Assembly: GCA_035530755.1 (NCBI GenBank) | Contig: DATKUF010000036.1 | Location: forward strand, 14,354 to 78,353 | DNA: 64,000 bases | Direction of reading: 5' to 3' | Source of the DNA: Spirochaetia bacterium | Lineage (GTDB): Bacteria; Spirochaetota; Spirochaetia; DSM-27196; DATKUC01 | Shown: positions 7,177-25,253 of the stretch, piece after piece | Numbering within the stretch: the stretch's first letter is position 1 | How the letters are laid out: every line of letters begins with the position of its first letter | Translations under genes and position numbers: made by a program | Notes under the pieces: model-generated | Seen by the model: the letters and a program-made list of their open reading frames with translations, nothing else | Databases searched by the model: none | What the model was told of the DNA's origin: nothing

Positions 7177-8730
7177 ATGGAAAAGAAAAAAACACTGATC
7201 GCTCCCAAAATTGTTGCGGTTGTCGACATAGGGTCGACCGCCATTCGGATAGTAATTGCCGAGATCGACGAGAAAGGTGACTGGAAGCGCCTGGATCGCG
7301 CAACCAAGCCGGTCCCGCTTGGCCGGGACGTGTTCATGTCGGGACACCTCACCCGTGAGACAATGCTGCAGGCGATTCGGATTCTCAGCGGCTTCCTCGA
7401 GATGCTTTCCGGCTGGCACATTGGGCCGAGGGACGTGCGGGTGATTGCGACCAGCGCCATTCGCGAGGCGAAGAATCGGGACACGTTCGTCGACCGCGTA
7501 TTCATCAGGACGGGACTTCGGATCAACATCATCGAAGGAGTTGAAGAGAATCACCTCACCTATCTGGCGGTCCAGCACGCGGTCCACGACATGCCCGGCC
7601 CCTTCACCAGATCGAGCTCTCTTATCATCGAGGTAGGCGGGGGAACCACCGAAGTCATGCTGCTCGATCGTGGGAACATGGTGGCGGCGCATTCGTTCCG
7701 CATCGGAACTGTGCGGATCGAGCAGCAGGTGCGACCGCGCTGGGAATCAAATACGCAGATGGAAGGGTATCTGCGCGAGAATTTGCGCGGAACTCTGGAA
7801 ATCATGAACACCGAGCTCAGGCTCGCGCGCGTGCATTACTTCGTCGCCGTCGGGGGCGACGCGCGATTGGCCGCTGCCAGAGCGGGGACGAAGGAGGCCG
7901 AGCACTACTGGATCATCGAGAAGGCGGATTTTGCCGGGTTTCTCGCGCAACTGGCCGAGCTGTCGGTGGATGAGATCGTCACTCAGCTGGGCGTAACCTA
8001 CAACGAGGCGGAGGGGTTGTATCCGGCCCTGGTGATCTACAACCTTTTTCTTGAAGCCACCGGCGCCCGGCAGCTCATTGTTCCCGATGTCAGTATCCGG
8101 GAAGGAATGCTCGTTAGCTTCGCCCTCGGCAATACGAGCGATGTCAGGGCCGAGCTCTACGGTCAGGTTGTCACCTCGGCAAAAAGCCTTGGGCGGAAGT
8201 TTCATTACGATGAAAAACATGCTATTCATGTGGCGAAGCTGGCGCTCGCGTTTTTTGACCAATTTCAGAATGATCACGGTCTGGAACATCACGCTCGACT
8301 GTTGATGGAGGTCGCGGCAATCCTCCACGACATTGGCAACTTCGTCCGATCGAGCGGCCATCACAAGCACGGACAATATATTGTCGCGAATTCGGAAATA
8401 TTTGGACTCTCTCGCGAGGATATTCGGATCATTTCGAACGTTGTCCGATATCACCGCAAGTCGATGCCCCTGGCATCGCACCCGTCGTTCGTATCGCTTC
8501 GACAGGAGCAACGGCTCATCGTGCTGAAGCTGGCCGCGATGTTGCGCGTTGCCGATGGACTCGACCGAAGTCATCAGCAGCGCGTACAGACGTTTCGTCT
8601 GGAAGTCGCCGAGGGAGATCTCCTTGTGGATTGCACCCACCAGGGCGATATCTCTGTCGAGCGATATGGTATGGCGGTCAAAGCCCTGATGTTCGAAGAA
8701 GTCTTCGGGTATCATGTAGTTATAACTTAG
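7177..8730 (+). CDS. ppx: Exopolyphosphatase / guanosine pentaphosphate phosphohydrolase (Ppx/GppA) with C-terminal HD domain
   Basis: VAVVDIGSTAIRIVIAE and EVGGGTTEV are ASKHA-fold motifs of Ppx/GppA. The C-terminal HD region has AAILHDIGNFV and ISNVVRYHRK. Confidence 0.9.
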   Translation: MEKKKTLIAPKIVAVVDIGSTAIRIVIAEIDEKGDWKRLDRATKPVPLGRDVFMSGHLTRETMLQAIRILSGFLEMLSGWHIGPRDVRVIATSAIREAKNRDTFVDRVFIRTGLRINIIEGVEENHLTYLAVQHAVHDMPGPFTRSSSLIIEVGGGTTEVMLLDRGNMVAAHSFRIGTVRIEQQVRPRWESNTQMEGYLRENLRGTLEIMNTELRLARVHYFVAVGGDARLAAARAGTKEAEHYWIIEKADFAGFLAQLAELSVDEIVTQLGVTYNEAEGLYPALVIYNLFLEATGARQLIVPDVSIREGMLVSFALGNTSDVRAELYGQVVTSAKSLGRKFHYDEKHAIHVAKLALAFFDQFQNDHGLEHHARLLMEVAAILHDIGNFVRSSGHHKHGQYIVANSEIFGLSREDIRIISNVVRYHRKSMPLASHPSFVSLRQEQRLIVLKLAAMLRVADGLDRSHQQRVQTFRLEVAEGDLLVDCTHQGDISVERYGMAVKALMFEEVFGYHVVIT

Positions 8731-8742
8731 AGGTCCGGCAGC

Positions 8743-10914
8743 ATGGCAGAAATTATTCGAACATACAAAAAACACGAAGGTGGACGGTACTTCAACCGCG
8801 AACTGAGCTGGATTGCGTTCAACGAGCGAGTCCTGTCCGAATCGCTGCGACGGGACGTTCCGTTACTCGAACGGCTTCGATTTCTCTGTATCGTTGCGAG
8901 CAATTTCGATGAGTTCTTCATGGTGCGCGTTGCGTCGCTGAAGAGGCAGATCCGGACAGGACGCAGGGTCCATTGCCCATCCGGAATGAGCGCCGAAGAA
9001 CAGTTGCGTGAGATCAGTCTGCGCGTGCGGGAGATCGTCAAAACCAAATACGAATGCCTTCTGGATGATATTCTGCCGCAGCTTGCTGAGGCAGGATTGG
9101 TGCTGAAGGCCCCTGAGACCTATAGCCAGACTCAGAAGAAGTTTCTGGAAGAGCTGTTCCAGGAAGAGGTCTTTCCCGTTCTCACACCGGTCAGGTGTGA
9201 GCTGGGAAAGCCGCTGCCTTATACCGGGAATCTTCGTCTCCACGCAGCGTTTCTGCTTCGGCCGCTGCAGGGTGAAGACTTCCTCGTCCCGGAAACGGGA
9301 GCGGAAGCACTTGCGATTGTGCAGATCCCTGCGGGTATACCTCGCATCCTCTACCTTCCGGAAACCCGGGGGACCGTCTCCTTTGCGCTGCTCGAGCACG
9401 TCATTCGGGACCATGCAGCGCAGCTCTTTCCGGGGTACGAAATAACCGAAGACATGTTCTTCCGTGTCACACGGGATGCGGATCTGGGCGTGGACGAGGA
9501 GCGAGACGAAGACTTCGTAGAGGCTATGGAGCAGGTCCTCGAATCGCGCGAGCACAGCATGGCAATTCGCATGAGCATCAACAAGAGTACCGGGCGCCTG
9601 CGTGAGATGTTGACCGACGCTCTCGCCCTCAACTCGTCCGAAGTTTACATGAAAACCGATCCCATGGACCTGAGCACCTTCATGGAGCTCGTAGATCTTC
9701 CCGGATTCGACCACCTTAGGTACGAAAAGTGGAAGCCTCAGGATTCTCCCTATCTTCCGGAGGAGTCTTCGATCTGGGATGCGTTGAAGAAGCGTGACGT
9801 TCTGCTTCATCATCCTTTTGAGTCGTTCGCGCCCGTTGTGCGACTGGTCCGGGAAGCGGCTACCGATCCGTCGGTGCTGGCAATAAAGATGACACTCTAT
9901 CGCACGAGCGGATCTTCCCCCCTTGTCCAGGCACTCGAGGTCGCGGCCGAAAACGGGAAACAGGTCACAGTCCTGGTCGAACTGAAGGCGCGGTTCGACG
10001 AAGAGCAGAACATAGAATGGGCGCAGCGTCTCGAACGTGCAGGTGTCATTGTCGTCTATGGAATTGTTCGATTGAAAGTACACGCGAAAGCGATTCTCAT
10101 CATCCGCCGTGAGGAAAAAGGCGTGACCCGGTACGTGCACCTGGGAACGGGAAACTACAATGACAAAACCGCACGGGTCTACACAGACCTCGGTTTCATG
10201 ACCACCCAGGACGAACTCGCCTACGAAATTGGTCTTTTCTTCAATTCGATTACCGGCTACTCCGCCATACCGGCCCTTTCCAAGCTCGTGATGGCGCCGA
10301 CAGCGCTCAAGTCACGGCTGCTCCAGATGATAGACCGGGAAGCACAGCGATCGACGCCGGAGAATCCCGGGCGCATCATCGCCAAGATCAATTCGCTCGC
10401 GGATCCGGAGGTCATCGAAGCTCTGTACAACGCCTCGGCAAGAGGCGTGCAAATATCTCTGATTATTCGCGGTATATGCATGCTCGTGCCCGGTGTGCCG
10501 GGGATGAGCGAGAACATCGCTGTCACGAGTGTGGTGGGCCGTTACCTGGAGCACTCGCGAATCTATTTCTTTCACAACGGTGGAGCCGGCGAATACTACT
10601 GCGGGAGCGCCGATCTGATGCCCCGAAACCTCGAACGCCGCGTGGAACTTCTGTTCCCCATCGAGAATCCGGATCTGCAGAAACGCATCAAATCCATCCT
10701 GGAGACCTACCTGGCGGACAACAGTCAGTCGCATGCGCTGCGGCCCGACGGAGTCTACGTGAGACGCGAGTCCGAGTCCGGAGAAGTATCGGTAGGAAGC
10801 CAGTCGGTTCTCTACGAGGCGGCGTGCAATCGGGCAAGCATCGCTGCGCCCGTGAATAGAAAGGAGTTCAGCGTCAGGCGAAAACCGCCGCAGGCGAAGC
10901 GACTTCGCCGCTGA
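8743..10914 (+). CDS. ppk: Polyphosphate kinase 1
   Basis: YFNRELSWIAFNERVLSE is the classic PPK1 N-terminus. Also present: SNFDEFFMVRV, VHAKAILIIRRE, HLGTGNYN and the PLD-like GRYLEHSRIYFF. 723 aa. Confidence 0.95.
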   Translation: MAEIIRTYKKHEGGRYFNRELSWIAFNERVLSESLRRDVPLLERLRFLCIVASNFDEFFMVRVASLKRQIRTGRRVHCPSGMSAEEQLREISLRVREIVKTKYECLLDDILPQLAEAGLVLKAPETYSQTQKKFLEELFQEEVFPVLTPVRCELGKPLPYTGNLRLHAAFLLRPLQGEDFLVPETGAEALAIVQIPAGIPRILYLPETRGTVSFALLEHVIRDHAAQLFPGYEITEDMFFRVTRDADLGVDEERDEDFVEAMEQVLESREHSMAIRMSINKSTGRLREMLTDALALNSSEVYMKTDPMDLSTFMELVDLPGFDHLRYEKWKPQDSPYLPEESSIWDALKKRDVLLHHPFESFAPVVRLVREAATDPSVLAIKMTLYRTSGSSPLVQALEVAAENGKQVTVLVELKARFDEEQNIEWAQRLERAGVIVVYGIVRLKVHAKAILIIRREEKGVTRYVHLGTGNYNDKTARVYTDLGFMTTQDELAYEIGLFFNSITGYSAIPALSKLVMAPTALKSRLLQMIDREAQRSTPENPGRIIAKINSLADPEVIEALYNASARGVQISLIIRGICMLVPGVPGMSENIAVTSVVGRYLEHSRIYFFHNGGAGEYYCGSADLMPRNLERRVELLFPIENPDLQKRIKSILETYLADNSQSHALRPDGVYVRRESESGEVSVGSQSVLYEAACNRASIAAPVNRKEFSVRRKPPQAKRLRR

Positions 10915-13561: not shown

Positions 13562-14452
13562 TCAGGCCCCTATCACGGCGACAGCCGCCGCCGCGATCGC
13601 TGCGGCTGCGGCCGTGCTCAAAAAGTTGACCACATCGTTGGTAAAGAGCGGAATACCGCGTATTCGGGCGTTAAGGCCGCCGGCATCTTTCCTTTGCTCG
13701 GTCAGATGCCCGGTCCCGGGTCGGATGTAGAGCGGCTGAACGGTCGCTCCGAGAACGCTGTCGAGAACCGCGCCAATCCATCCGGATATCCCGACAATTC
13801 CCGCGTCAACGCCGATCCTCGCAAGGTCGTTCACTCCGCCGAGGACGGCCAAACCGGCCGCAAAAACCACGGCCGCAAGGAGAGCACCCGCGGCGGCCGA
13901 AAGGAATCCCAGACCTGTAACGCCGCCGGACATTCCCGGCAGAATAGGGCGCCGGCTTATGATCGATACAGGTTTGTGGCGCGCGAGAACTCCGAGCTCG
14001 CTCGACCAGGTATCGGCGTTCGCCTCGGCGAAAGCGGCGGCGAGCGCGACAAGCCAGAGGTGGGCGCCTGAGGGCAGGTTCGCCCCCGGAATGCCGACAC
14101 CGGTTGCGGCAAGTAAGAATGGTACCCCGGAAATCGCAAATCCCACTGCGGCAATGAGCCCGACTCCTCCGTTTGCGAGAACCTGTAAAGCGTCGCGCCG
14201 ACTTCCCTTCTCCTGAATCAGCTCGATTCCCGATTTCCGGTCAAGACCGATTCGACTCGCAATCGAGGAGGTCACGAAAAATGCACCCAGGCAGATCCAT
14301 GCCGTCCATCCGGCGAGCAGCAGGATTCCGGCTCCGACGACGAAACCGGTCGCGGCACCGACCGAAGTGACGGCCCGGCGCCAGCCGGCGATAATCGCGA
14401 AGATCCCATTCAGCAACAGGGCCGCGAATATCAGCTCAAACGAAATATTCAT
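13562..14452 (-). CDS. DUF92 / TMEM19-family integral membrane protein (VTE6-like, candidate prenyl-phosphate kinase)
   Basis: Polytopic membrane protein with KGSRRDALQVLANGGVG, the conserved DUF92/COG1836 core. Its start overlaps the stop of the upstream gene by 4 nt (ATGA). Confidence 0.75.
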   Translation of the reverse strand: MNISFELIFAALLLNGIFAIIAGWRRAVTSVGAATGFVVGAGILLLAGWTAWICLGAFFVTSSIASRIGLDRKSGIELIQEKGSRRDALQVLANGGVGLIAAVGFAISGVPFLLAATGVGIPGANLPSGAHLWLVALAAAFAEANADTWSSELGVLARHKPVSIISRRPILPGMSGGVTGLGFLSAAAGALLAAVVFAAGLAVLGGVNDLARIGVDAGIVGISGWIGAVLDSVLGATVQPLYIRPGTGHLTEQRKDAGGLNARIRGIPLFTNDVVNFLSTAAAAAIAAAAVAVIGA

Positions 14453-15204
14453 AGTATCACCAGGTTGTAGAACAGCACCGAAAGAATCGGCACCGTCAGA
14501 TTGTCGAGGCCGAACGGCGTCACCGCCTCGACGATCGTCGCCACACCGGCGACCGCGCCCGCGCGAGCGGCGACTGTTGCCAGACCTGCCTGGGGACAGA
14601 AAGTACCAACGAGGATTGCCCCAACGGTGAACGAGGCGGCGAACATGGTGAGAGACCCTGCGATGCTCTTGGTCGCTCTGTCGCTCGTCGTATCAATGCC
14701 CGCATTCGGCAGCATGTTGCTCCGGCCGGCAACCGCATAGCGGCCTGACTTCACCCGCTCGCCGACCAGCGCGGCCAGTCCGTCCCCCCAGCCCATGATG
14801 AGGATACCAATTCCGCCGGTATAAACCGGAAATACGCCACCGAATGTGAGGAACACTATGGCGAGCAACGACAGTGGGAAGTAGATGGTTCCGAGATTAC
14901 TTCTGTCGGCGTGCGGGCGCAACGTCGCCATTGAGCCCCGTCTCCAGATCACCACATTGAAGATGAGAAAAAACGCAGGGCCGACTGCGGCAAACCAGGG
15001 GTTATCGTGAAAGAGCATGGCGAGCAGCCACCAGTGGGACGCGCCGATGTGCACGATTTTTCGACCGGTGGCTTCACGAACCAACTTTCTCGCGATGAGC
15101 AGTTCGACGACGACCAGGAGGGCGAATACCGCTGCGAATGACACAGCGATGCCCGTCAGATTCCGGTACAGACTGTAATCGCGAGGTCCGATAAACTGGA
15201 GCAT
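14449..15204 (-). CDS. Dolichol-kinase / phytol-kinase-like (VTE5-like, CTP-dependent prenol kinase family) membrane protein
   Basis: Start moved to ATG 15204 (MLQFIGPRDY...). The GRKIVHIGASHWWLLA motif (RK-x-VH-x-G) is typical of phytol/dolichol kinases. There are multiple TM helices and GWGDGLAALVGERVKSGRY near the C-terminus. Confidence 0.7.
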   Translation of the reverse strand: MLQFIGPRDYSLYRNLTGIAVSFAAVFALLVVVELLIARKLVREATGRKIVHIGASHWWLLAMLFHDNPWFAAVGPAFFLIFNVVIWRRGSMATLRPHADRSNLGTIYFPLSLLAIVFLTFGGVFPVYTGGIGILIMGWGDGLAALVGERVKSGRYAVAGRSNMLPNAGIDTTSDRATKSIAGSLTMFAASFTVGAILVGTFCPQAGLATVAARAGAVAGVATIVEAVTPFGLDNLTVPILSVLFYNLVIL

Positions 15205-15266
15205 GCCGTGGGCATTGTACCGCGCTTGAACAACCGGTGCAATTGATCTATTCTTTAAAGAAATCA

Positions 15267-16013
15267 ATGTCAGGTGAAGAACAACAAAAACGGCTTGCAG
15301 TACTTATCGATGCAGACAATACGCAGCCTTCAATTATCGAGCCGTTGCTCGAAGAGGTGGCGAAGTACGGTGTGTCGAGCGTGCGTCGCATTTATGGTGA
15401 CTGGACGAGCCCGAATCTGAAAGGCTGGAAAGAGGTTCTTCTCCAGTTTGCCATACAGCCGATCCAGCAATTTGCCTACACAAAGGGAAAAAACGCTACC
15501 GACAGCGCGATGATAATCGACGCGATGGATCTGCTCTATACCGAGAAGTTCGACGGTTTCTGCATCGTTTCCAGCGATAGTGATTTCACGCGGCTCTCGG
15601 CTCGTATTCGCGAAGCGGGGCTCACCGTTTACGGCTTCGGCGAGCAAAAAACGCCGAAAGCGTTTGTCGGCGCCTGCGACAAATTTATCTACACGGAGAT
15701 TCTACGCAAGAAGGACGAGAAGGAGCCGGAGGTTCGGCCCTCGCTCAGTTCCTCGGACTTGAAACGGGACACACGTCTGGTCACGCTGCTGCGCAACGCG
15801 ATCGAAGACTCTGCGGACGAAAATGGCTGGGCGCATCTCGGCTCCGTCGGAACGAATCTTGCCAATCGGTCACCCGAGTTCGATCCGCGCAACTACGGGC
15901 ACAAGAAGCTCGGGGATCTGATCCGCGTAATCGGCCTTTTCGAAACCGACGGACGTTCTGCGGAGAACTCGCCGGCGAAGAACATCTACGTGCGGGACAA
16001 ACGACGAAAATAG
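15267..16013 (+). CDS. NYN (LabA/PIN-like) ribonuclease domain protein with C-terminal OST-HTH/LOTUS domain
   Basis: Start moved to ATG 15267. NYN core: RLAVLIDADNTQ...RRIYGDWTS...KNATDSAMIIDAMDLLY...FCIVSSDSDFTRLSARIREAGLTVYGFG. C-terminal LOTUS-like region: GWAHLGSVGTNLANRSPEFDPRNYGHKKLGDLIRVIGLFE. Confidence 0.85.
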   Translation: MSGEEQQKRLAVLIDADNTQPSIIEPLLEEVAKYGVSSVRRIYGDWTSPNLKGWKEVLLQFAIQPIQQFAYTKGKNATDSAMIIDAMDLLYTEKFDGFCIVSSDSDFTRLSARIREAGLTVYGFGEQKTPKAFVGACDKFIYTEILRKKDEKEPEVRPSLSSSDLKRDTRLVTLLRNAIEDSADENGWAHLGSVGTNLANRSPEFDPRNYGHKKLGDLIRVIGLFETDGRSAENSPAKNIYVRDKRRK

Positions 16014-16017
16014 TACT

Positions 16018-16434
16018 ATGAGCAGCAAGAATCCCCGGGGGGATCGCGCTCGATTCGGGAATCGCGGCTTCCCCCTTCGCATACTCGACATCCTTTCCAT
16101 TGCCATGGCCCTGGGTGTAGTCGTGCTTTTCACCGTCCAAGCCTATACCGGCGCGGGGAAGAGCAGCGAAGTAAGCATACAGGCGAACGGACAGTACTAT
16201 CTCTATCCTTTGGACCAGGACACCGAGTTTTCGGTATCCGGGCCAATCGGTGAGACCACAATTCAGATTCGAAGCCACGCGGTCAGGGTAGTTTCTTCGC
16301 CGTGCCGCGACAAGATATGCATTGCTGCCGGCTGGCTGTCTCACTCCGGCCAGTGGACTGCCTGTCTGCCGAACCGCGTTTTTGTCCGTGTCGAAGGCGG
16401 CGATCCGGCGCCTGTAGATGCGCAGACATTCTGA
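16018..16434 (+). CDS. NusG domain II-containing (DUF1312) membrane-anchored protein
   Basis: One N-terminal TM helix (ILDILSIAMALGVVVLFTV), then a beta-rich domain with VRVVSSPCRDKICIAAGWLSHSGQWTACLPNRVFVRVEG. The C-x3-C ... C pattern and the LPN+V.V motif are characteristic of NusG_II proteins. Confidence 0.7.
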   Translation: MSSKNPRGDRARFGNRGFPLRILDILSIAMALGVVVLFTVQAYTGAGKSSEVSIQANGQYYLYPLDQDTEFSVSGPIGETTIQIRSHAVRVVSSPCRDKICIAAGWLSHSGQWTACLPNRVFVRVEGGDPAPVDAQTF

Positions 16435-16492
16435 GATTTGATCCGAGATTCGCAGATCTGATGCATGTCGCGCAGAACGGGGGATTGGACGC

Positions 16493-17413
16493 GTGAATGA
16501 TACTCGGAAACCACCTGGTTCTTATCCCGCGATCTGGATCCGGGCGTTGCGACCGTGGACTGTCGCCGTTGTAGCGTTTCCGACCACACTCGGCATTGTA
16601 TTCGCGGACGTCGCGGGGCGGGAGGGCCGACTCAAGGCGGCTCTGGTCCTTGTCTCGGCGGTTCTGCTCCAATTCGGAGCCAATATGGTGAACCACTTTT
16701 TCGCATTTGGCAGCTCGGGACCGGATATAGGGCGCACGGATATCGGCGTGTTCGGGCCCGGCCGCTCACGGATCGATTGGCTCGTCTTTCTCTCCGGCAT
16801 CGGGTGCTTTTTTCTTGCTATTCCCTTTGGAATGATTCTCGTCTACCTCGACGGGGTGCCGATCCTTCTGCTTGGCATTGTCGGTTTCGCGACCGCCTAC
16901 TTCTATTCTGCAGAGCCGGTGAACTATAAGCGACGTGGTTTTGCAGTTCCGGCCGCTTTTCTGTTTCTTGGCCTCTGTATGGTTGCGGGTTCAACCTATG
17001 CGGTACTGGAGCGGTTACCCGGTCGAGCGTTGCTCATTTCGTTTCCCGTGGGTTTTCTTGCTGCCGCGCTGCTTCTCGAAGAGGAGCTGCTTGGCGAGAG
17101 GCGAGACCGGGAAAACGGTGTCGGAACGCTCGCCGTCCGTCTGGGCCCGGCGCGCGGCCGGCTGCTTTTCCTTGTCCTCGTAGTTCTCGCCTACCTCTGG
17201 CCTGCCGTTCTGAACGCCGCATCCCGCGTCCCTCATCAGTCGGGACTTCCGATCTATTTCATCTATGCCGCAACCCCGTTTGCTGCAGCTTCGATTCGAC
17301 AGCTCTATCGGTCGCCCGCGCTCGTGAAGAGGCCGATACCGTGGATGCTTCTGCATCACTACGTCTTCGGCATTTTGTACATTGCGGCCAACTTTTCGCG
17401 AGGGCAGCGGTAG
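16493..17413 (+). CDS. UbiA-superfamily prenyltransferase-like membrane protein, MenA-like but with degenerate Asp-rich motifs
   Basis: WIRALRPWTVAVVAFPTTLGIVFA and LLQFGANMVNHFFAFGSSGPD align to the MenA N-terminus. ERRDRENGVGTLAVRLG aligns to the second motif (RDxxxDrenGkxTLxV). Eight or nine TM helices. GTG start. Confidence 0.7.
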   Translation: MNDTRKPPGSYPAIWIRALRPWTVAVVAFPTTLGIVFADVAGREGRLKAALVLVSAVLLQFGANMVNHFFAFGSSGPDIGRTDIGVFGPGRSRIDWLVFLSGIGCFFLAIPFGMILVYLDGVPILLLGIVGFATAYFYSAEPVNYKRRGFAVPAAFLFLGLCMVAGSTYAVLERLPGRALLISFPVGFLAAALLLEEELLGERRDRENGVGTLAVRLGPARGRLLFLVLVVLAYLWPAVLNAASRVPHQSGLPIYFIYAATPFAAASIRQLYRSPALVKRPIPWMLLHHYVFGILYIAANFSRGQR

Positions 17414-17428
17414 ACCCGCGTATCCGGT

Positions 17429-18160
17429 ATGCTGGAGGTACGTGCCTGTTCGGCTGTATATGGCGAAACTCCGGTGTTCGACCCGCTCTCATTTTCCGTC
17501 GCACCAGGCGAGACTCTCGCCGTGGTCGGGCCGTCGGGTTGCGGAAAATCCACGCTGCTTTCAGTAATCGCGGGCCTCAAAACTCCGGCCGGAGGAGAGT
17601 CTCTACTCAATGGAGCTCGAGTTTCCGCGGGTGACGCTTCGCTGATATTGCAGCAGTACGGCCTGTTTCCCTGGTTCACGGTCATGGAAAACGTGGAGCT
17701 TGGCCTGCGTATACGCCGCATTCCGCGTTCCGAACGGCGCGCAAGGGTACGCGCGGAGCTTGGCAACGTTCACCTGACAGGCCTCGAGCATCGTTTTCCG
17801 GCCGCACTCTCAGGTGGGCAGCAGCAGCGAGTGGCCATCGCAAGGGCGCTCGTTCTCGACCCCGCAGTCCTGCTGATGGACGAGCCGTTCTCGTCCCTTG
17901 ATGCACTCACCCGCGAGCGGCTGCAGGAGCTGCTCCTGGAGGTGCTGCGGGTCCGACAAATCCCGTCCATCATCGTGACGCACAGCATCGAAGAGGCGGC
18001 CTACCTGGGTTCATCGATTGCGGTGATGGCGGGGCGTCCGGCACAGCTGCGCATGATCGAGAACCCGGGTCAGGGGGCGGAAGCGTATCGCCTGAATCCC
18101 CGATACTTCGAAACATGTCGCACAGTTCGCGCGACGCTGGAACGGGAGATCGCGCGGTGA
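17429..18160 (+). CDS. ABC transporter ATP-binding protein, NitT/TauT (nitrate/sulfonate/ThiZ-like) family
   Basis: Walker A GPSGCGKSTLL, signature LSGGQQQRVAIARAL, Walker B LLMDEPFSSLD, H-loop IVTHSIEEA. Confidence 0.9.
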   Translation: MLEVRACSAVYGETPVFDPLSFSVAPGETLAVVGPSGCGKSTLLSVIAGLKTPAGGESLLNGARVSAGDASLILQQYGLFPWFTVMENVELGLRIRRIPRSERRARVRAELGNVHLTGLEHRFPAALSGGQQQRVAIARALVLDPAVLLMDEPFSSLDALTRERLQELLLEVLRVRQIPSIIVTHSIEEAAYLGSSIAVMAGRPAQLRMIENPGQGAEAYRLNPRYFETCRTVRATLEREIAR

Positions 18161-18909
18161 AAGGGTGGAGGCGTCGCGCGTTCCGGGCTGCGAGCGCGGT
18201 TCTGGTTATCACTGCTTTATGGGCCACAGCGACACAGCTTCTCGGGAATCGAATAGTGCCCTATCCCTGGGCAGTTTTCGAACGGTTTCTGGCGCTGCTT
18301 CCCGATCCACTGCTCACGCATATGCTGGCGAGCCTCGCGCGCGTGACGGCCGCCCTTGCCGTGAGCTTCGCGGTCGCGCTCCCGCTTGGAGTTGCAATGG
18401 GAAGGATCAAAGCTTTTGACTGGTTGCTCTCACCCGCTTCCTACCTCATGTTCCCCGTCCCGAAGATAGCGCTTCTTCCGGTCGTGCTCCTCGTCTTCGG
18501 ACTGGGAAACGTGGCCAAGGTATTTCTGGTTACGCTGGTGCTCTTCTTCCAGATTCTCACCGCCGTCCGTGACGGGGCCCGCAATATCGATCGGCGCTAC
18601 CTCCTATCTTTCCGGTCGCTCGGTGGATCCCGGCTCCAGTCGGTGCGCTACGTCATATTGCCGGCGCTTCTGCCGAATCTTTTCACCGCATTGCGCGTGG
18701 GTTCGGGGACCGCGCTGGCCGTCCTTTTCTTTGCCGAAACTTTTTTCACCCGCTTTGGTCTCGGGTACATGATCATGGACGCCTGGACTCGCGTCGCCTA
18801 TCTCGACATGTACGTCGGCATCCTGGGATTGAGCCTGCTCGGACTTGCGCTTTTTGCGGCAATAGACCTCGCCGAGCGGCTTCTCTGTCCATGGGCGCGT
18901 CGGGATTGA
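18157..18909 (+). CDS. ABC transporter permease, NitT/TauT (ThiX-like) family
   Basis: Start moved to GTG 18157, which overlaps the ATPase TGA (GTGA). There are six predicted TM helices and an EAA-like loop (SFRSLGGSRLQSVRYVILPALLP). Confidence 0.85.
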   Translation: MKGWRRRAFRAASAVLVITALWATATQLLGNRIVPYPWAVFERFLALLPDPLLTHMLASLARVTAALAVSFAVALPLGVAMGRIKAFDWLLSPASYLMFPVPKIALLPVVLLVFGLGNVAKVFLVTLVLFFQILTAVRDGARNIDRRYLLSFRSLGGSRLQSVRYVILPALLPNLFTALRVGSGTALAVLFFAETFFTRFGLGYMIMDAWTRVAYLDMYVGILGLSLLGLALFAAIDLAERLLCPWARRD

Positions 18910-18943
18910 AGGCCGGACTCCTTCTTCACCCCAGCACCCGTTC

Positions 18944-20077
18944 TTACGGGTTCACGCGGTCGAGTTTTTCGATGGCTGTCACCGCCGCCGGGTCCGGAGG
19001 CCAGTACTCGCCTGAGGGGACCGCCGTGGGGAAAGCTGCTCTTTTGTATTCTGTGTTAGTGATCTCGAATTTCCCTTCGAGTCCGTCCGTGTAGTACACC
19101 TTGTTATCATCCGTGACGAAGATTGCATCGACTCCTTTGAGCATCCGAATGAGCGCGGCGCCCTTATCCAGCCCCATCACGAATATCGAGGTGGACAGAC
19201 CGTCGCAGATCATCGAGACTCCGCTGTAGATAGTCGTGCTCGTAAGGTGCTGCTGAACCGGGTAGCCGGTCTTCGGATCGATGATGTGGTGGTACATCGT
19301 GCCATTCTTGATGAAGTAGCGTTCGTACGGACCGGAAGTCACCACCGACATGTCGGCAGTGCTCACGATTCCGAGGAACGACCCACGGGTCTGAAACGGC
19401 GTCTGTATCCCGATCCTCCAATTTGCTCCGTCCGGTTTGGATCCGAGCACAAGGATGTTTCCACCGAAGTCCAGGATTGCGTGCTTTACCCCGCCCTCTG
19501 CGAGGATACGCTCCGCCTCGTCGGCCGCATAGCCCTTCGCGATTCCGCCCAGATCGATTCCCATCCCCTTCTTCTCGAGATAGACGGAATTATCCGAGTC
19601 GTTGAGTTTGATCCATCTCCAATTGACCAGCGGAAGCAGAGCCTTGATCTCATCGGGCGACGGAAGCCGTTCGTGGTCCGTTCCTATTCCCCAGAGTTTG
19701 ACTATGGGGCCGACGGTTATGTCGAAGGCGCCGTTGGTAAGCCGGCTGAAGTCCAGTGACGTTTTGATTACGCCGTAGACGTCCGGTGTTACAGGAACCG
19801 GTCTGATGCCCGCCTCCTGATTTATCTTGTCGACCTCGCTTTCGGTACCCTCGGTGGTCATTCTGTTGTGAATGTCGCGCACTCGTGCAAATGCCCGGTC
19901 GAGAACTGCAGAGTTCACCCGGTCATAAACGGTCATCGTAATTGTGGTTCCGAGCAGCAATTCGGTTCGGGATATCGGTTTCGCCGGTCCTCCGGCGCAG
20001 GCTGTCAGCGTGAGCGCCGTCAATCCGAAGAGCATTAAGACTCCCGTGGATATCCGGCCGGTTGTTGATCTGTTCAT
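18944..20077 (-). CDS. apbE: FAD:protein FMN transferase ApbE, lipoprotein
   Basis: Signal plus lipobox (VLMLFGLTALTLTACAGG). ApbE core: GIDLGGIAKGYAADEA, TSGPYERYF, YHHIIDPKTGYP, CDGLSTSIFVMG. There is a ~50-aa C-terminal extension. Confidence 0.9.
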   Translation of the reverse strand: MNRSTTGRISTGVLMLFGLTALTLTACAGGPAKPISRTELLLGTTITMTVYDRVNSAVLDRAFARVRDIHNRMTTEGTESEVDKINQEAGIRPVPVTPDVYGVIKTSLDFSRLTNGAFDITVGPIVKLWGIGTDHERLPSPDEIKALLPLVNWRWIKLNDSDNSVYLEKKGMGIDLGGIAKGYAADEAERILAEGGVKHAILDFGGNILVLGSKPDGANWRIGIQTPFQTRGSFLGIVSTADMSVVTSGPYERYFIKNGTMYHHIIDPKTGYPVQQHLTSTTIYSGVSMICDGLSTSIFVMGLDKGAALIRMLKGVDAIFVTDDNKVYYTDGLEGKFEITNTEYKRAAFPTAVPSGEYWPPDPAAVTAIEKLDRVNP

Positions 20078-20254
20078 GATGAAATCAATAGTACCATAAT
20101 TATCGAATTCGGGTCAATGTATTACTCTTTTGGACGTAAAATAGGGATTAGTTGCTTTACATTATTCGATAAATGTTGTACGATAATTTTCAACCCAGAC
20201 AGAACCAATCTTTGGCCTTCCTTTGGCAGCCCAAAGTTTGCGGAGGACCGTTGT

Positions 20255-22453
20255 ATGGCAGAGAAAACACGTATTTCTATCCTTGGTGCCGGCTACGCCG
20301 GAATTGCTGCAGCGAAGTTGCTCTACAAAAGGTACAAGAAGAAACAGGATGTAGAGATAACCGTAATCGATCGCAACCCGTACCACACTTTGATGACTGA
20401 GTTGCATGAAATTGCCGGGTCCCGCACCGAACCGGGAGCTGTACAGGTGAGCCTTGCAAAGATATTCGGCGGGACAAGCGTCAACGTAGTCATCGATGAA
20501 ATCCAGACTATCGACTTCGAAAATAACCGACTGGTGTCAAAGATCGCCGAATATCCCTACGACCACCTCATAATTGGTGCGGGAGCCGAACCGGAATTCT
20601 TCGGAACACCGGGCGTGCAGGAGCACTCCTTCACCTGCTGGTCGCTCGAAGACGCCATCCGCATCCGCACTCACGTTGAAGACATGTTTCGGGCCGCAGC
20701 GAAGGAACCCGACGAAGCGCAGCGCCGGGAACAGCTGACCTTCGTCATAGCTGGGGCGGGTTTCACCGGAATTGAGCTTGCGGGAGAGCTTCTGGAGCGG
20801 CGCGATGTGCTTTGCACGCAGTACCACATCAATCCCGATGAGGTTCGGGTCATTATCGTGGAGATGAAGGATACGATTCTCCCCATCCTGCCCCCTTGGC
20901 CGGTCAAAAAGGCGGCAAAGTACCTGGCAAAACGTGGAGCCGAGGTGATGCTCAACGCGCCGGTCGCCGAGGCAGCTCCGGGCCGGGTCAAAGTCGGCGG
21001 CGATCACGACGTCGAGATACGAACCCAGACATTCATCTGGACCTGCGGAGTGCATGGGTCCGAATTCACCTCAAAAATCGTCCTCACGAAAGGAAGCTGC
21101 TCACCCGATCACAATGCGGTGGCCTCCATCGAAGGCATCCACGGAATGGCCGGTTGTCATTTCGACGACGACGAACGCTACATCGTGGGAGAACGCGGAC
21201 GCATTCTCGTCAACAAATACTCCCAGTCGGTAGACTTCAAGAATGTCTACCTCGTCGGCGATGTCATGTGGTATGTCATCAACGGAAAAGTCGTGCCTCA
21301 GATCGTAGAGACCGCACTGCAGTCGGGCGACGTAGCCGCCAGAAACATCGTATCCGATATCGAAGGCGGCGAAAAAGAGGAATTCCAGCCAAGGTACCAC
21401 GGGTTTATGGTATCAATCGGCGGCAGGTACGGTGTGGCTCACGGAATGGGGATGTCCTTCTCGGGTTTCATGGCGATGGGCGCGAAACATCTCATCAACA
21501 TGCACTATCTGCTTGGACTCACCGGTATCAACGCTGTGTGGGAGTACATGCAGCACGAGTTTTTCACCATAAAGGACCATCGTTCCTTCATCGGCGGACA
21601 TCTTGCGTGGAAAGTTCCTTCCTACTGGACCTTCCCCTTGCGCCTCTGGCTTGGCGGGAAATGGCTGTACGAAGGCATTAAAAAGATAACGGAAGGCTGG
21701 CTCAACCCGGGTAAAGAGGGGTTGTCCAACGTCTGGACCGGAGCCATCAAGATGCCGGGCGTTCACTTCGCAGCCCCCGTGGCCAACGCCGCAGGGCAGG
21801 CGGCCGGGCACGCCGCCGAAGCAACCTCTGCCGCAACAGCGGTTGCGCAGGCTGCCCCCGCGGCGGCGCAGGCGGCAGCCGACGCGACCTCCGCAGCAAC
21901 CGGAGCCGTCGCCCAGGCTGCGACCGCAGCAGCCCAGACGGCGGCAGACGCGACGTCAGCTGCAACCGGCGCAGTCGCCCAGGCAGCTACCGGAGCGGCG
22001 CAGCACGTAGCAGCCGCAGCGAGTCAGTACGGGCAGCCGCTCAGCGGGCCGTGGGGCATCTACACCTGGTTCGCCCAGAACGTCCTGAGCGCGTCACCGC
22101 TGCTTTCGTTTCTGCTCCAGACCCTGGTGGTAATCATCGAGGTCGGCATCGGACTCGCTTTCGTGGGCGGCGCTTTCACATGGCTTGCGGCCCTCGTTTC
22201 GATCCTGCTCGGCCTGATGTTCATCGCCTCCGGATGGGGGAGCAACGAGATTCTCTGGTACATGTTTGCTGCTCTTGTCATGTTCGGCGGTGCCGGCCGC
22301 GGCCTCGGTCTCGATCACTGGATCATGCCGTGGCTCAAGGATCGCTGGAACGGTACGGGATTTGCAAAGCGCACGTTCCTCTACACCGACGAACCGCGCG
22401 ATCGCTGGTCCCGGAAAGGTCGCCCTGCGAAAGAGCTCGCGGGAAAAAAATAG
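20255..22453 (+). CDS. Type II NADH:quinone oxidoreductase (NDH-2) fused to a C-terminal DoxX/DoxD-like membrane domain interrupted by an Ala-rich tandem repeat
   Basis: Start moved to ATG 20255, after a GGAGGA Shine-Dalgarno sequence. Two Rossmann motifs (ISILGAGYAGIAA, FVIAGAGFTGIELAGEL) and YLVGDV. The C-terminus has DoxX-like helices (TFPLRLWLGGKWLYEGIKKI ... LQTLVVIIEVGIGLAFVGGAFTWLAALVSILLGLMFIASGWG). Confidence 0.85.
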   Translation: MAEKTRISILGAGYAGIAAAKLLYKRYKKKQDVEITVIDRNPYHTLMTELHEIAGSRTEPGAVQVSLAKIFGGTSVNVVIDEIQTIDFENNRLVSKIAEYPYDHLIIGAGAEPEFFGTPGVQEHSFTCWSLEDAIRIRTHVEDMFRAAAKEPDEAQRREQLTFVIAGAGFTGIELAGELLERRDVLCTQYHINPDEVRVIIVEMKDTILPILPPWPVKKAAKYLAKRGAEVMLNAPVAEAAPGRVKVGGDHDVEIRTQTFIWTCGVHGSEFTSKIVLTKGSCSPDHNAVASIEGIHGMAGCHFDDDERYIVGERGRILVNKYSQSVDFKNVYLVGDVMWYVINGKVVPQIVETALQSGDVAARNIVSDIEGGEKEEFQPRYHGFMVSIGGRYGVAHGMGMSFSGFMAMGAKHLINMHYLLGLTGINAVWEYMQHEFFTIKDHRSFIGGHLAWKVPSYWTFPLRLWLGGKWLYEGIKKITEGWLNPGKEGLSNVWTGAIKMPGVHFAAPVANAAGQAAGHAAEATSAATAVAQAAPAAAQAAADATSAATGAVAQAATAAAQTAADATSAATGAVAQAATGAAQHVAAAASQYGQPLSGPWGIYTWFAQNVLSASPLLSFLLQTLVVIIEVGIGLAFVGGAFTWLAALVSILLGLMFIASGWGSNEILWYMFAALVMFGGAGRGLGLDHWIMPWLKDRWNGTGFAKRTFLYTDEPRDRWSRKGRPAKELAGKK
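21812..22006 (+). repeat. In-frame tandem repeat (63+66+66 nt) encoding an Ala-rich 21/22-aa unit inside the NDH-2 fusion gene
   Basis: Codon-by-codon reading gives three units: AAEATSAATAVAQAAPAAAQA (21812-21874), AADATSAATGAVAQAATAAAQT (21875-21940) and AADATSAATGAVAQAATGAAQH (21941-22006). Confidence 0.9.
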
Positions 22454-22519
22454 GCGCGACTCACATCGCATTGTAGAACGTCCCGAATATCTGTACATTA
22501 CACACTGACTGGCGTGTGG

Positions 22520-22550
22520 AGCGGCTGGCAACGTCCAGCCGCTTCTCGTT
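22520..22550 (+). terminator. Candidate intrinsic terminator after the NDH-2 fusion gene
   Basis: AGCGGCTGG (22520-22528), loop CAACGT, then CCAGCCGCT (22535-22543) forms a 9-bp GC-rich stem. It is followed by TCTCGTT. The T-tract is weak. Confidence 0.35.
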
Positions 22551-22577
22551 CCCGGTCGAATCGATGCAGGAAAGAGT

Positions 22578-23723
22578 ATGACACGATTCTGGGACGACTT
22601 CCCGACAATAAAATATGACCTGGAACTCGTACAGGAAGTGATCCTCGAGAGTGTCCGCAGTCGCAGCAGGACGATAACCGAGGCGCTCTCGAACCTGGCG
22701 AATCGTAACGGGAAACTGCTTCGGCCCGGTTTTGTGGTTCTGAGTGCGCGAATCAGGGGCGATGCAGAAACGAACAGGTCCGGGCGCGATGAGCCGGGTG
22801 TGGACTCCGGGGGACCCGGACCTAACCATAAGCCCGCGCTCGGTGAAATCGGTTCGGCAGACAAGAATGGAAGCCTGCGCGTCGAGCTCGCGTTCGCCGA
22901 CGTGCGGGAAAGAGATCGACGACCCGAACCGAAGGCTCTTCCGCAAAACATCTATCGTGTCGCCGCCGCGATCGAGCTGCTCCACCTGGCGACGCTCATC
23001 CACGATGACGTTATCGATGAAGCCGATGTTCGACGTGGACAGCCGACGCTTCACCGTGAGTACGGCACGAAAGAGGCCATTCTCATGGGCGACTTTCTCT
23101 TCAGTCGCTGCTACCGCATTCTTGCCGACAATGCCAGCCTTGAGAACGCGAAACGGCTGGCGATTGTGGTTAGTCAGATCGTCACCGGGGAGATCGAGCA
23201 GTCGGTGCATGGCCCGGAAACCCAATCCACGCCTCGCGCCTATCTGAGACGGGTTGTCGGAAAGACGGCTACTCTGGTGGCCGACAGTTTCTATCTCGGC
23301 GCTTCCGAAGCCGGGATCGGCCTTGCGCAAACGCTTCTACTGCGGCGTATCGGCTACAGTATTGGAATGGCCTTCCAGATCATCGACGACATTCTCGATT
23401 TTACCGGGCGCGCCGACCTGCTCGGCAAAGCACCGGGATCGGACCTTCGCCAGGGCGTCGTGACCTTGCCGCTTATTTATGCGATGAGAGAAGAGGCCGG
23501 GGAGATGATTCGTCGTCGGGTGATGCATCCTGAGAGTCTGACCGACGCCGAAATGACCGATGTCATAGCGCAGATCGACCGATGCGGTGGGTTCGCGATG
23601 GCTCGTGAGAAGGCCGATCTGTTCACCCGGCGCGCACTGCGCCAGATTGCAGTCCTTCCACGGGGCGTCAATCGCGATACCCTGTCCGAAGTCACAAGCC
23701 GGCTCCTCGACCGCGGTTACTGA
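22578..23723 (+). CDS. trans-Polyprenyl diphosphate synthase (HepT/IspB-like) with an N-terminal insertion
   Basis: First DDxxD in ELLHLATLIHDDVIDEADVRRGQPT and second in MAFQIIDDILDFTG. KLLRPGFVVLSA is also present. About 55 extra residues lie between LSARI and the first Asp-rich helix. Confidence 0.9.
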   Translation: MTRFWDDFPTIKYDLELVQEVILESVRSRSRTITEALSNLANRNGKLLRPGFVVLSARIRGDAETNRSGRDEPGVDSGGPGPNHKPALGEIGSADKNGSLRVELAFADVRERDRRPEPKALPQNIYRVAAAIELLHLATLIHDDVIDEADVRRGQPTLHREYGTKEAILMGDFLFSRCYRILADNASLENAKRLAIVVSQIVTGEIEQSVHGPETQSTPRAYLRRVVGKTATLVADSFYLGASEAGIGLAQTLLLRRIGYSIGMAFQIIDDILDFTGRADLLGKAPGSDLRQGVVTLPLIYAMREEAGEMIRRRVMHPESLTDAEMTDVIAQIDRCGGFAMAREKADLFTRRALRQIAVLPRGVNRDTLSEVTSRLLDRGY

Positions 23724-23726
23724 CCG

Positions 23727-25253
23727 TCACTCCGGGTACTTTCGCCGGACATCGCGGAAGGTGTCCTGGATTCCCACGGCCAGATCTACCAGTACCGGAT
23801 CAAAGTGCTTCTCGCGTGCGGCGAGAATCTCTGAGAATGCCTGCTCGTGCAGCCACGGTTCCTTGTATGGCCGCTTGGAGGTGAGTGCATCGTAAACGTC
23901 CGCTATTGCGGTGATGCGGGCGGAGAGGGGGATTTCCGAGCCGCTGAGGCCGTGCGGATAACCGGTCCCGTCCCATCGCTCGTGGTGATGCAATGCGATG
24001 CGCGACGAAAGCGTGAGAAACGACTGCTTGCCGAGCTCCTGTTCAGCTTCATTCAGAATGTTCCATCCCCAGATGGTGTGCTTCTTCATCACTGTCCATT
24101 CCGACGGGGTGAGCGCGCCCTCCTTCAACAGAATACCGTCCGGCACTCCAACCTTGCCGATATCGTGCAGCATCGAAGAGAGGTGCATGTCGTCGATGTA
24201 CTCATCGGAGATATTGAACTTGAACGGCTGGAAGCGGTAGACCTCCGCTGCAAGCGCCGCGTTGTACTCGGAGATTCGGTGGAGGTGTTTCCCGGTCTCG
24301 AGGTCACGATATTCGGCCAAAGCCGCCAGCGATTTCATCGCGGTGGCCTGAGTCTTCTGCAGAACGGAGGTTGTCGCCTGGAGCTTCTCGTTGACCATGC
24401 GATGGTTCTCGAGCGTCTCCTGCAGGTCCTCGTTCAGCCTGACGAAATCGCTGACGTCGAAGAGCACACCGAGCGTGTTACGTCCGATGATCGTCGATGC
24501 GTTCTGGACGACCCGTGTGTCGCCTCGCCCGGTTCTGACGTGCACGTTAATTACTCCGCTCCGACCGTGCAGGATCTGCGCGATTCCCTCGGACCACTGA
24601 TCTTCGTCTGCGAAAAACTGCCCTTTCCCGTTGAGATCCTCGATTCGTTCATACCCGAAGGTGTGAAGAAACACATCATTTACCGACAGGAAATCTCCGT
24701 TCCCGTTCGTGACATACATGGGAATGCTCAGCATGTTCATGAGCCTGCCGAGCATGGCCGGAGTAAACAGATCTGCATCGTCACGGTTTCCGCGGAGGCT
24801 GCGAACCTGTCTTTGCAGCCGTCCCAGGCAGCTGATATCCTGCGCCTTCGACGCGAGAAATCCAAGCGGAAGCTGATTTTGCGCCAGAAACTTGCGCGGG
24901 GAGACGCACTTCAGAAGAATAGCGCCGGCAAGATCTCCGTTCGCCGACGCGAGTGGATAATAGAGAGTTACATCTTTCTGGTATTCGACCGGGAAAATGT
25001 TCTGGGGTATAGGCGATTTTCCGTTGAGGACTGCTGGTTCCTTAGGGAACAGCGGTACTTGCCTGGACGGAATGAGAAAGGAAAAATCTGACGCTTTGTC
25101 GCTGCCGGGATTGTCGAAGTGGACCAGACGTGTGGCACGAACGCCCGGAAACCGATCCAGCCAATCGACGAGCATCCGCATCTTGCGCCCGTTCGAGAGC
25201 TCGTTGTCCAGCTTCCGGAACAGCTCCAGTAACGGTTCGAGTACACGCGTCAT
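23727..25253 (-). CDS. HD-GYP domain cyclic-di-GMP phosphodiesterase with N-terminal sensory (PAS-like) region
   Basis: HLHRISEYNAALA, SSMLHDIGKVGVPDGILLK and ALHHHERWDGTGYPHGLSG..IPLSARITAIADVYDALTSKRPYK give the complete HD-GYP signature. Confidence 0.9.
   Translation of the reverse strand: MTRVLEPLLELFRKLDNELSNGRKMRMLVDWLDRFPGVRATRLVHFDNPGSDKASDFSFLIPSRQVPLFPKEPAVLNGKSPIPQNIFPVEYQKDVTLYYPLASANGDLAGAILLKCVSPRKFLAQNQLPLGFLASKAQDISCLGRLQRQVRSLRGNRDDADLFTPAMLGRLMNMLSIPMYVTNGNGDFLSVNDVFLHTFGYERIEDLNGKGQFFADEDQWSEGIAQILHGRSGVINVHVRTGRGDTRVVQNASTIIGRNTLGVLFDVSDFVRLNEDLQETLENHRMVNEKLQATTSVLQKTQATAMKSLAALAEYRDLETGKHLHRISEYNAALAAEVYRFQPFKFNISDEYIDDMHLSSMLHDIGKVGVPDGILLKEGALTPSEWTVMKKHTIWGWNILNEAEQELGKQSFLTLSSRIALHHHERWDGTGYPHGLSGSEIPLSARITAIADVYDALTSKRPYKEPWLHEQAFSEILAAREKHFDPVLVDLAVGIQDTFRDVRRKYPE

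Follow-up and report, generated by a model that had tools for sequence, protein, structure and literature searches.

In the flavin-based extracellular electron transfer (FLEET) systems of the Gram-positive bacteria Listeria monocytogenes, Lactiplantibacillus plantarum and Enterococcus faecalis, electrons enter through Ndh2 or Ndh3, in which a type II NADH dehydrogenase (NDH-2) is joined to a C-terminal membrane domain, and the loci also encode ApbE/FmnB, EetA (a NusG_II protein), a UbiA-family prenyltransferase and a polyprenyl synthase. How electrons pass from reduced demethylmenaquinone to the outside is a recognized gap in this scheme. In L. plantarum, PplA is dispensable for Ndh2-dependent anode reduction, and in E. 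faecalis the reduction of Fe3+ requires EetA/EetB and Ndh3 while PplA is dispensable, the path beyond quinone being described as 'not known'. What these processes do need is Ndh2/3 together with the machinery for FAD export and flavinylation. Here we consider an ndh2 gene in a 64,000-nucleotide stretch of a Spirochaetia bacterium contig (the window), whose 732-amino-acid (aa) product is very probably a FLEET-type Ndh2, the spirochaete counterpart of Ndh2/Ndh3. A previous sequence-only reading of this DNA had drawn attention to the fusion of dehydrogenase and membrane domain; the new element, which that reading missed, is a conserved array of sequences resembling flavinylation motifs in what is predicted to be an outward-facing loop of the protein.

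The sequence recognized by ApbE is D-x-x-[S/T]-G-A-[S/T], and these seven residues are enough for modification even when transplanted into a surface loop; a Gly-to-Ala change reduces modification without abolishing it, and an Asp-to-Ala change has a minor effect. Surveys of ApbE substrates describe FMN_bind proteins (NqrC, RnfG, PplA), NqrB/RnfD, DUF2271, DUF3570, fumarate/urocanate reductases, Flavodoxin_4, the C-terminal extensions of FMN_red proteins, and multi-flavinylated proteins; they note residual orphan ApbEs and do not mention Ndh2 or DoxX. The sites of FMN_red proteins lie on unstructured extensions, and several sites in one protein also have precedent. No description of a flavinylated Ndh2 or Ndh3 was found in the literature that we searched, most subscription journals being outside its coverage.

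The Ndh2 fusion and its membrane domain

The gene and its parts (TM, transmembrane helix) are as follows.
20255-22453 (+): ndh2, a probable FLEET-type NDH-2 with a C-terminal DoxX-like membrane domain, 732 aa (homology, model, ribosome-binding site)
20255-21565 (+): NDH-2 catalytic domain, aa 1-437, with both GxGxxG motifs and C-terminal amphipathic helices (4NWZ, Foldseek)
21077-21193 (+): clade-specific, Cys-containing insertion in the NDH-2 domain, aa 275-313 (gap against 4NWZ, pLDDT < 50)
21620-21691 (+): TM1 of the DoxX-like domain, aa 456-479, PLRLWLGGKWLYEGIKK (AlphaFold helix, pLDDT > 90)
21692-22093 (+): TM1-TM2 loop, aa 480-613, acidic, lacking Lys/Arg, largely disordered, with the motif array, predicted to lie outside the cytoplasm (pLDDT, charge)
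22097-22306 (+): TM2-TM4, aa 615-684 (AlphaFold helices, hydropathy peak of 2.34 at 619-637)
22307-22450 (+): basic, predicted cytoplasmic tail, aa 685-732, with 12 Lys/Arg, starting with a conserved GLDHW (charge)

Within the open reading frame (ORF) at 20117-22453 (+), the likely true start is position 20255, as had been proposed: a GGAGGA Shine-Dalgarno sequence lies at 20242-20247, seven bases 5' of it, and the resulting product is 100% identical to a deposited protein of a Spirochaetia metagenome-assembled genome (MAG; P0001). The unusual length of the ORF, taken alone, would speak for an assembly or frameshift artefact in which two separate genes, ndh and DoxX, had been run together. Such an origin is contradicted by the independent deposition of the identical protein and by an architecture common to 2940 homologues (E < 1e-5, mostly 640-770 aa). 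A profile of the C-terminal domain, searched exhaustively against 1.84 billion representatives, defined a narrow family of only 358 clusters, in which every full-length match carries the domain from about residue 405 onward, fused to NDH-2 in proteins of 540-740 aa; the short matches look like fragments, and no split orthologues were seen among the matches. In 80 genome loci, moreover, the NDH-2 part and the C-terminal match share a strand, with the former ~1.2-1.8 kb upstream, which fits a single gene. Because split orthologues, which the sequence-only reading had named as a sign of a frameshift, are lacking, the artefact hypothesis is refuted, and the fusion is genuine and widespread.

Residues 1 to about 430 had been described as a complete NDH-2 with two GxGxxG motifs, and both sequence and structural model bear out a complete NDH-2 at residues 1-437, presumably with NADH:quinone oxidoreductase activity. 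Pfam reports Pyr_redox_2 (E = 2e-27) and Pyr_redox (E = 9e-9), and the dinucleotide-binding motifs are GAGYAG at 11-16 and GAGFTG at 167-172. The alignment with the NDH-2 of Caldalkalibacillus thermarum (4NWZ; E = 8.5e-64) spans query residues 4-274 and 314-429 and reaches chain residue 394 of 405, so that the C-terminal membrane-anchoring helices are covered, and a Foldseek comparison of the AlphaFold model with 5KMP/4NWZ gives a TM-score of 0.95 and a root-mean-square deviation of 1.7 A. The fold and both dinucleotide motifs are shared, at 32% identity, with canonical monotopic NDH-2 enzymes (C. thermarum 4NWZ, Staphylococcus aureus 5NA1). Those enzymes stop at ~400 aa with amphipathic helices, whereas the window protein adds ~295 residues, with four TM helices and a predicted extracytoplasmic loop. 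It also differs from FLEET Ndh2 in an extra insertion of ~39 aa, IVLTKGSCSPDHNAVASIEGIHGMAGCHFDDDERYIVGE, which holds two Cys and is modelled at pLDDT < 50. The insertion is shared by the spirochaete homologues, in which G294, G297 and C301 are invariant, and was found neither in solved NDH-2 structures nor in the Firmicute FLEET Ndh2 sequences inspected; it is a possible redox-sensitive or metal-binding element.

In the added ~295 residues, AlphaFold models four helices confidently (456-479, 615-638, 642-659 and 664-677), and a low-confidence stretch at 509-592 (pLDDT < 50) separates the first from the remaining three. Invariant residues include P461, R463, G467, W470, E473 and G474 in TM1 and D687 in the tail, where H688 is nearly invariant. 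The resemblance of this region to DoxX/DoxD, put forward in the sequence-only reading, shows for the family and not for the window protein itself, which gives no significant match, an outcome that the reading had treated as decisive against it: DoxD (E = 0.013, 15.9 bits against a cut-off of 22.7) and DoxX (E = 0.24, 12.5 bits against 23.6) both fall below the Pfam gathering threshold, and no NCBIfam family is matched by the C-terminal part alone. TM2-TM4 align, also below threshold, to positions 28-77 of the DoxX profile. Among 26 diverse relatives, DoxX matches (E <= 1) occur in 19 (best 5e-6), DoxD matches in 12 (best 2.7e-6) and MauE matches in 10, and precomputed DoxX/DoxD matches exist for P0114, P0186, P0339, P0340 and P0345. 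This consistency across relatives suggests a likeness that shows at the family level only. The domain shares with DoxX/DoxD (PF07681/PF04173) a four-helix membrane arrangement and differs from them in the long loop after the first helix and in being, in full-length matches, always carried on NDH-2.

Over 285 family members, the net charge is +2.3 both ahead of TM1 and in the C-terminal tail, and -6.6 in the loop; the positive-inside rule holds across these proteins, and the NDH-2 domain must be cytoplasmic. From this charge pattern, the cytoplasmic NDH-2 and the four helices, we predict a topology with the N-terminus in, the TM1-TM2 loop out and the C-terminus in. Unlike the Gram-positive FLEET bacteria, the window's host is a diderm member of the Spirochaetota, and the loop would therefore face the periplasm.

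The C-terminal profile of the window protein matches a Lacticaseibacillus protein (P0170; E = 3e-31) and a Secundilactobacillus protein (P0264; E = 2e-10), and the former is the Ndh2 of a FLEET cluster with two UbiA genes, ApbE, FMN_bind/PplA, NusG_II/EetA, Hpre_diP_synt_I/EetB and polyprenyl_synt. An E. faecalis protein (P0416, 648 aa), related to one Lactobacillales Ndh2, stands in the same FLEET arrangement and agrees with the 1947-bp NADH dehydrogenase gene of the cad/FLEET locus of E. faecalis, that is, with Ndh3; the link to the model organisms, L. monocytogenes included, rests on these E. faecalis and Lactobacillaceae sequences. As a marker of extracellular electron transfer, Meheust et al. 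(2021) used an NADH dehydrogenase that has a transmembrane helix and is encoded in a flavinylation gene cluster, and the match to this marker makes the architecture one of a known kind and not a novelty. The suggestion that the fusion couples the oxidation of NADH to a quinone route of its own is in keeping with the FLEET Ndh2/Ndh3 family.

A flavinylation-like motif array in the TM1-TM2 loop

The Ala-rich repeat that the sequence-only reading saw as splitting the DoxX-like region is real and does split it, but it appears to be more than an interruption: it forms a conserved array resembling ApbE flavinylation motifs, with three (E/D)ATSAAT copies.
21818-21838 (+): motif copy 1, EATSAAT, aa 522-528, candidate flavin mononucleotide (FMN) acceptor Thr528 (variant of D-x-x-[S/T]-G-A-[S/T])
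21881-21901 (+): motif copy 2, DATSAAT, aa 543-549, candidate FMN acceptor Thr549 (motif match)
21947-21967 (+): motif copy 3, DATSAAT, aa 565-571, candidate FMN acceptor Thr571 (motif match)
21848-22003 (+): 66-nt tandem DNA repeat, 2.4 copies, 80% matches, generating motif copies 2 and 3 (Tandem Repeats Finder)

A protein 90% identical to that of the window (P0002) has three DATSAAT copies, and among the window's ORFs of 80 aa or more in all six frames, the strict form of the motif (D..[ST][GAS]A[ST]) occurs only in the Ndh2 loop. Across the family we counted this form and a core form ([ST][GAS]A[ST]), taking the expected numbers from composition-preserving shuffles. The loops of 97 close homologues hold 150 strict matches against 0.7 expected (maximum 4 in 1000 shuffles), and the 55,241 non-loop residues of the same proteins hold none. 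Among representatives of 50%-identity clusters, 28 of 37 loops carry at least one core match (6.8 expected), with 62 core matches in all (8.4 expected) and four in 20,979 non-loop residues. As the sequences compared are related, these are not counts of independent events, a point to be set with those weighed in the next section. The search pattern itself dictates Asp at -6, Ala at -1 and Ser/Thr at the acceptor; at position -3, 80% of the strict matches have Ser.

Where the motif is present, it occurs in one to seven copies per protein, as in DGDSGASPE (x6), DAGSGASPEWE (x3), DAVSAATD (x6), ETVASASQA (x5) and D(A/T)VTAASGA (x7), and some relatives have the canonical form (DGDSGAS, DAGSGAS, TSGAS/T). 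Two MAG proteins, one from Spirochaetaceae (P0141, 736 aa) and one from Bacillota (P0159, 643 aa), carry seven tandem D(A/T)V[TAAS]GA or [TAA(S/T)] units. The loops of FLEET Ndh2/Ndh3 likewise contain [S/T][G/A]A[S/T]: that of E. faecalis Ndh3 reads ...FPWLQEQVT[TGAS]QATETAT[TAAS]..., with TGAS and TAAS, that of a Lactiplantibacillus species T[SGAS][SAAS]AAT[SGAS], with SGAS twice, and that of Lacticaseibacillus T[SGAS]AAGADAT[SAAS]. The window loop differs from these in its expansion by a tandem repeat and in the replacement of the motif Gly by Ala.

A plainer account would keep the protein as a FLEET-type Ndh2 whose DoxX-like domain anchors it and handles quinone, and would treat the loop as a flexible low-complexity spacer that carries no flavin, its motif likeness arising from a composition rich in Ala, Ser, Thr and Gly and shaped by repeat expansion. 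The loop is indeed disordered, very variable in length (26-170 aa across the family) and, in the window, the product of recent tandem duplication; the canonical Gly is replaced in most copies, functional-looking members without a loop exist, and PplA suffices as the flavinylated carrier in published FLEET models. We nevertheless consider a flavin-free spacer rather unlikely. The shuffles, which preserve composition, fall far short of the observed counts in close and in diverged sequences alike, and the register of the motif is kept even between clades whose loops otherwise cannot be aligned. The first copy, moreover, keeps a fixed place, directly after conserved residues (spirochaete LPGVSF, Lactobacillales FPWL/FDWL), and the loop has an ApbE gene as its neighbor, often where no other local substrate is encoded.

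ApbE and the case for a flavinylated loop

The gene in question lies immediately upstream of ndh2 and is transcribed away from it.
18944-20077 (-): ApbE/FmnB-type FAD:protein FMN transferase, predicted lipoprotein, divergent from ndh2 (Pfam ApbE E = 3.8e-93)

Its product is 43% identical to the FmnB of Lacticaseibacillus (E = 3e-90) and has a lipobox at its N-terminus (...LTALTLTAC AGG); given the topology predicted above, the motifs would be within reach of this lipoprotein. We compared 80 Spirochaetota genome loci, counting ApbE adjacency in the 52 with enough flanking sequence, and found ApbE adjacent to ndh2 in 34 of these. In 32 of 45 ApbE-adjacent loci, a scan over +/-10 kb showed no other motif-bearing ORF of 100 aa or longer; in the other 13, it recovered PplA-like proteins with canonical DAVTGAT-type sites, which serve as a positive control. 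The number of motifs did not correlate with ApbE adjacency in these comparisons, the motif being present with or without an adjacent ApbE. PplA-like FMN_bind proteins with DAVTGAT or DVVSGAT lie beside ApbE in several sister loci (L004:6410-7288, L016:6805-7254, L038, L046, L054 and L065). The window and its closest relative locus (L003) have no such gene, so that the presence of PplA is variable within the clade; the Ndh2 loop motif occurs in most clade members.

The same Ser and Thr residues might instead mark the loop for another extracytoplasmic modification, such as general O-glycosylation, or help it bind a partner or the cell wall. Bacterial O-glycosylation systems favor low-complexity regions rich in Ala, Ser and Pro, and many motif copies precede Pro or sit in an ASP/AAS-rich context (SGASPE, SAATP). 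This possibility appears very remote, as the motif keeps the D-x-x-S-x-A-[S/T] register of ApbE sites, ApbE is also the partner found in the genomes, Firmicute homologues carry canonical TSGAS/TSGAT in ApbE-containing loci, and no glycosyltransferase gene was seen in the locus.

We therefore lean, by a modest degree, towards the loop being an ApbE flavinylation substrate with the three Thr residues as candidate sites. Several observations weigh against this proposal and against the wider reading of the locus. All three copies in the window have Ala in place of the canonical Gly at motif position 5, the first begins with Glu and not Asp, and a fully canonical D..[ST]GA[ST] is present in only 18 of the 97 close homologues. 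The loop is predicted to be disordered, whereas most known ApbE substrates show their site on a folded domain, and some family members lack loop or motif (Secundilactobacillus P0264, P0265, P0191 and P0199, one example being a 547-aa Secundilactobacillus protein). About one-third of the spirochaete loci have no ApbE within 8-10 kb. The window itself gave no tblastn or Pfam match for PplA (an FMN_bind lipoprotein) or for EetB/FmnA, and the DoxX score of its protein is below threshold, as described above. Studies of flavinylation and FAD export in Listeria consider PplA alone as the flavinylated protein. The ApbE of the locus might have further substrates in Rnf or Nqr encoded elsewhere.

If the loop does carry FMN, FLEET Ndh2/Ndh3 may themselves be multi-flavinylated transmembrane electron conduits, with one polypeptide leading from NADH to the loop FMN, a proposal that we put forward tentatively. 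In such a conduit, NADH would reduce the FAD of the NDH-2 domain, which would then reduce (demethyl)menaquinone made locally by the enzymes of the locus and held or conducted by the DoxX-like bundle. The quinol would be re-oxidized at the outer face by FMN covalently attached to loop Thr/Ser residues by the neighboring ApbE, and the tethered flavins would pass electrons to acceptors in the periplasm or outside the cell or, where present, to PplA-like proteins. Tandem duplication would set the number of flavin sites, and in spirochaetes up to seven motif copies could form a flavin 'fishing line' in the periplasm. What counts against such a route is that its step from demethylmenaquinol to FMN runs uphill thermodynamically; the accepted FLEET scheme has the same difficulty.

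Like known ApbE substrates, the window protein has an [S/T]GA[S/T]-like motif in a (predicted) extracytosolic position beside apbE. Unlike them, it bears its candidate sites on a polytopic membrane domain, in a disordered loop, with this domain fused to a cytoplasmic NADH-oxidizing enzyme, and if flavinylated it would unite donor enzyme and flavin carrier in one polypeptide.

The locus and its meaning for FLEET

Besides ndh2 and apbE, the locus contains the following genes.
16018-16434 (+): EetA-like small membrane protein, NusG_II (Pfam NusG_II E = 6.8e-25)
16493-17413 (+): MenA/UbiA-family polyprenyltransferase, DmkA-like by family and position (Pfam UbiA E = 2e-13)
17429-18160 (+): ABC transporter ATPase, NitT/TauT-like (Pfam ABC_tran E = 4e-31; NCBIfam TauB-like, below cut-off)
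18115-18909 (+): ABC transporter permease, TauC/SsuC-like (Pfam BPD_transp_1 E = 9e-18; NCBIfam SaoP/TauC-like, below cut-off)
22578-23723 (+): long-chain polyprenyl diphosphate synthase, DmkB-like (Pfam polyprenyl_synt E = 2e-55)

Genes of the fmnB, dmkA, dmkB and eetA types thus all lie within 16018-23723 alongside ndh2, as in FLEET loci. The EetA-like protein is 48% identical to that of a NusG_II gene beside ApbE in another locus (L001) and weakly matches the EetA of Lacticaseibacillus; EetA is a NusG_II protein in the FLEET loci L083 and L085. The polyprenyl synthase is HepT-like (E = 3e-66, below cut-off) and 30% identical to Lacticaseibacillus DmkB (E = 7e-51). For the MenA-like protein, the best of the NCBIfam 1,4-dihydroxy-2-naphthoate polyprenyltransferase models reaches E = 9e-34, below the equivalog cut-offs, and tblastn gave no match to Lacticaseibacillus DmkA. 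A survey of the spread and neighbors of the fusion, which the sequence-only reading had proposed, found ApbE, EetA-like and polyprenyl synthase genes recurring beside its homologues: among the 80 spirochaete loci, the polyprenyl synthase lies directly downstream of ndh2 in ~76, and EetA-like genes occur in 32-34, EetB-like genes in 11 and PplA-like genes in ~12.

The canonical NDH-2 domain, the missing PplA and EetB and the MenA-like gene without a match to DmkA would also suit a general respiratory NDH-2 with a DoxX-type anchor, feeding the ordinary menaquinone pool without extracytosolic electron transfer. We regard this as improbable. The C-terminal family is narrow and includes Lactobacillales Ndh2, a related E. 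faecalis protein stands in a FLEET locus, polyprenyl synthase, ApbE and EetA-like genes keep their synteny with ndh2 across Spirochaetota, and some sister loci hold PplA-like genes.

In place of PplA and EetB/FmnA, which distinguish the Gram-positive FLEET loci, the window has the ABC ATPase/permease pair (17429-18909), which lies between the MenA-like gene and apbE without an adjoining binding-protein gene. The same arrangement is seen in L003, L057 and L080, and in the Lacticaseibacillus FLEET locus L083 a BPD_transp_1 gene, an ABC_tran gene and an NMT1 binding-protein gene lie just downstream of dmkB. Because the window lacks the EetB/FmnA FAD exporter, the pair might supply flavin or a quinone precursor.

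Further neighbors also recur. An upstream block at 13562-16013, encoding a DUF92 membrane protein, a 272-aa protein (14449-15267) for which neither Pfam nor NCBIfam gave a match, and a NYN/LOTUS-domain protein, is conserved in many spirochaete ndh2 loci (L003, L004, L012, L048, L050, L070 and others). Directly downstream of the locus, on the opposite strand, a PAS and HD-GYP (HD_5) protein is encoded at 23727-25253 (-), as it also is in L003, L004 and L012; it could be a redox-sensing cyclic di-GMP phosphodiesterase that regulates the locus. Farther away, at 7177-10914, an exopolyphosphatase (Ppx/GppA with an HD domain) and polyphosphate kinase 1 stand in tandem; these are unrelated housekeeping genes.

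Taken by itself the fusion is ordinary, being an established hallmark of the FLEET NADH dehydrogenase, and it extends a Gram-positive system to many Spirochaetota. The motif array on the predicted outward loop of Ndh2/Ndh3 is a candidate for the carrier that is missing between reduced demethylmenaquinone and the outside. If the loop is flavinylated, it would represent a new class of ApbE substrate, in which a polytopic membrane protein joined to the primary dehydrogenase bears the sites on a disordered loop, and some 'orphan' ApbE genes could be accounted for. The loop motif would, in addition, offer a simple sequence marker for genome annotation.

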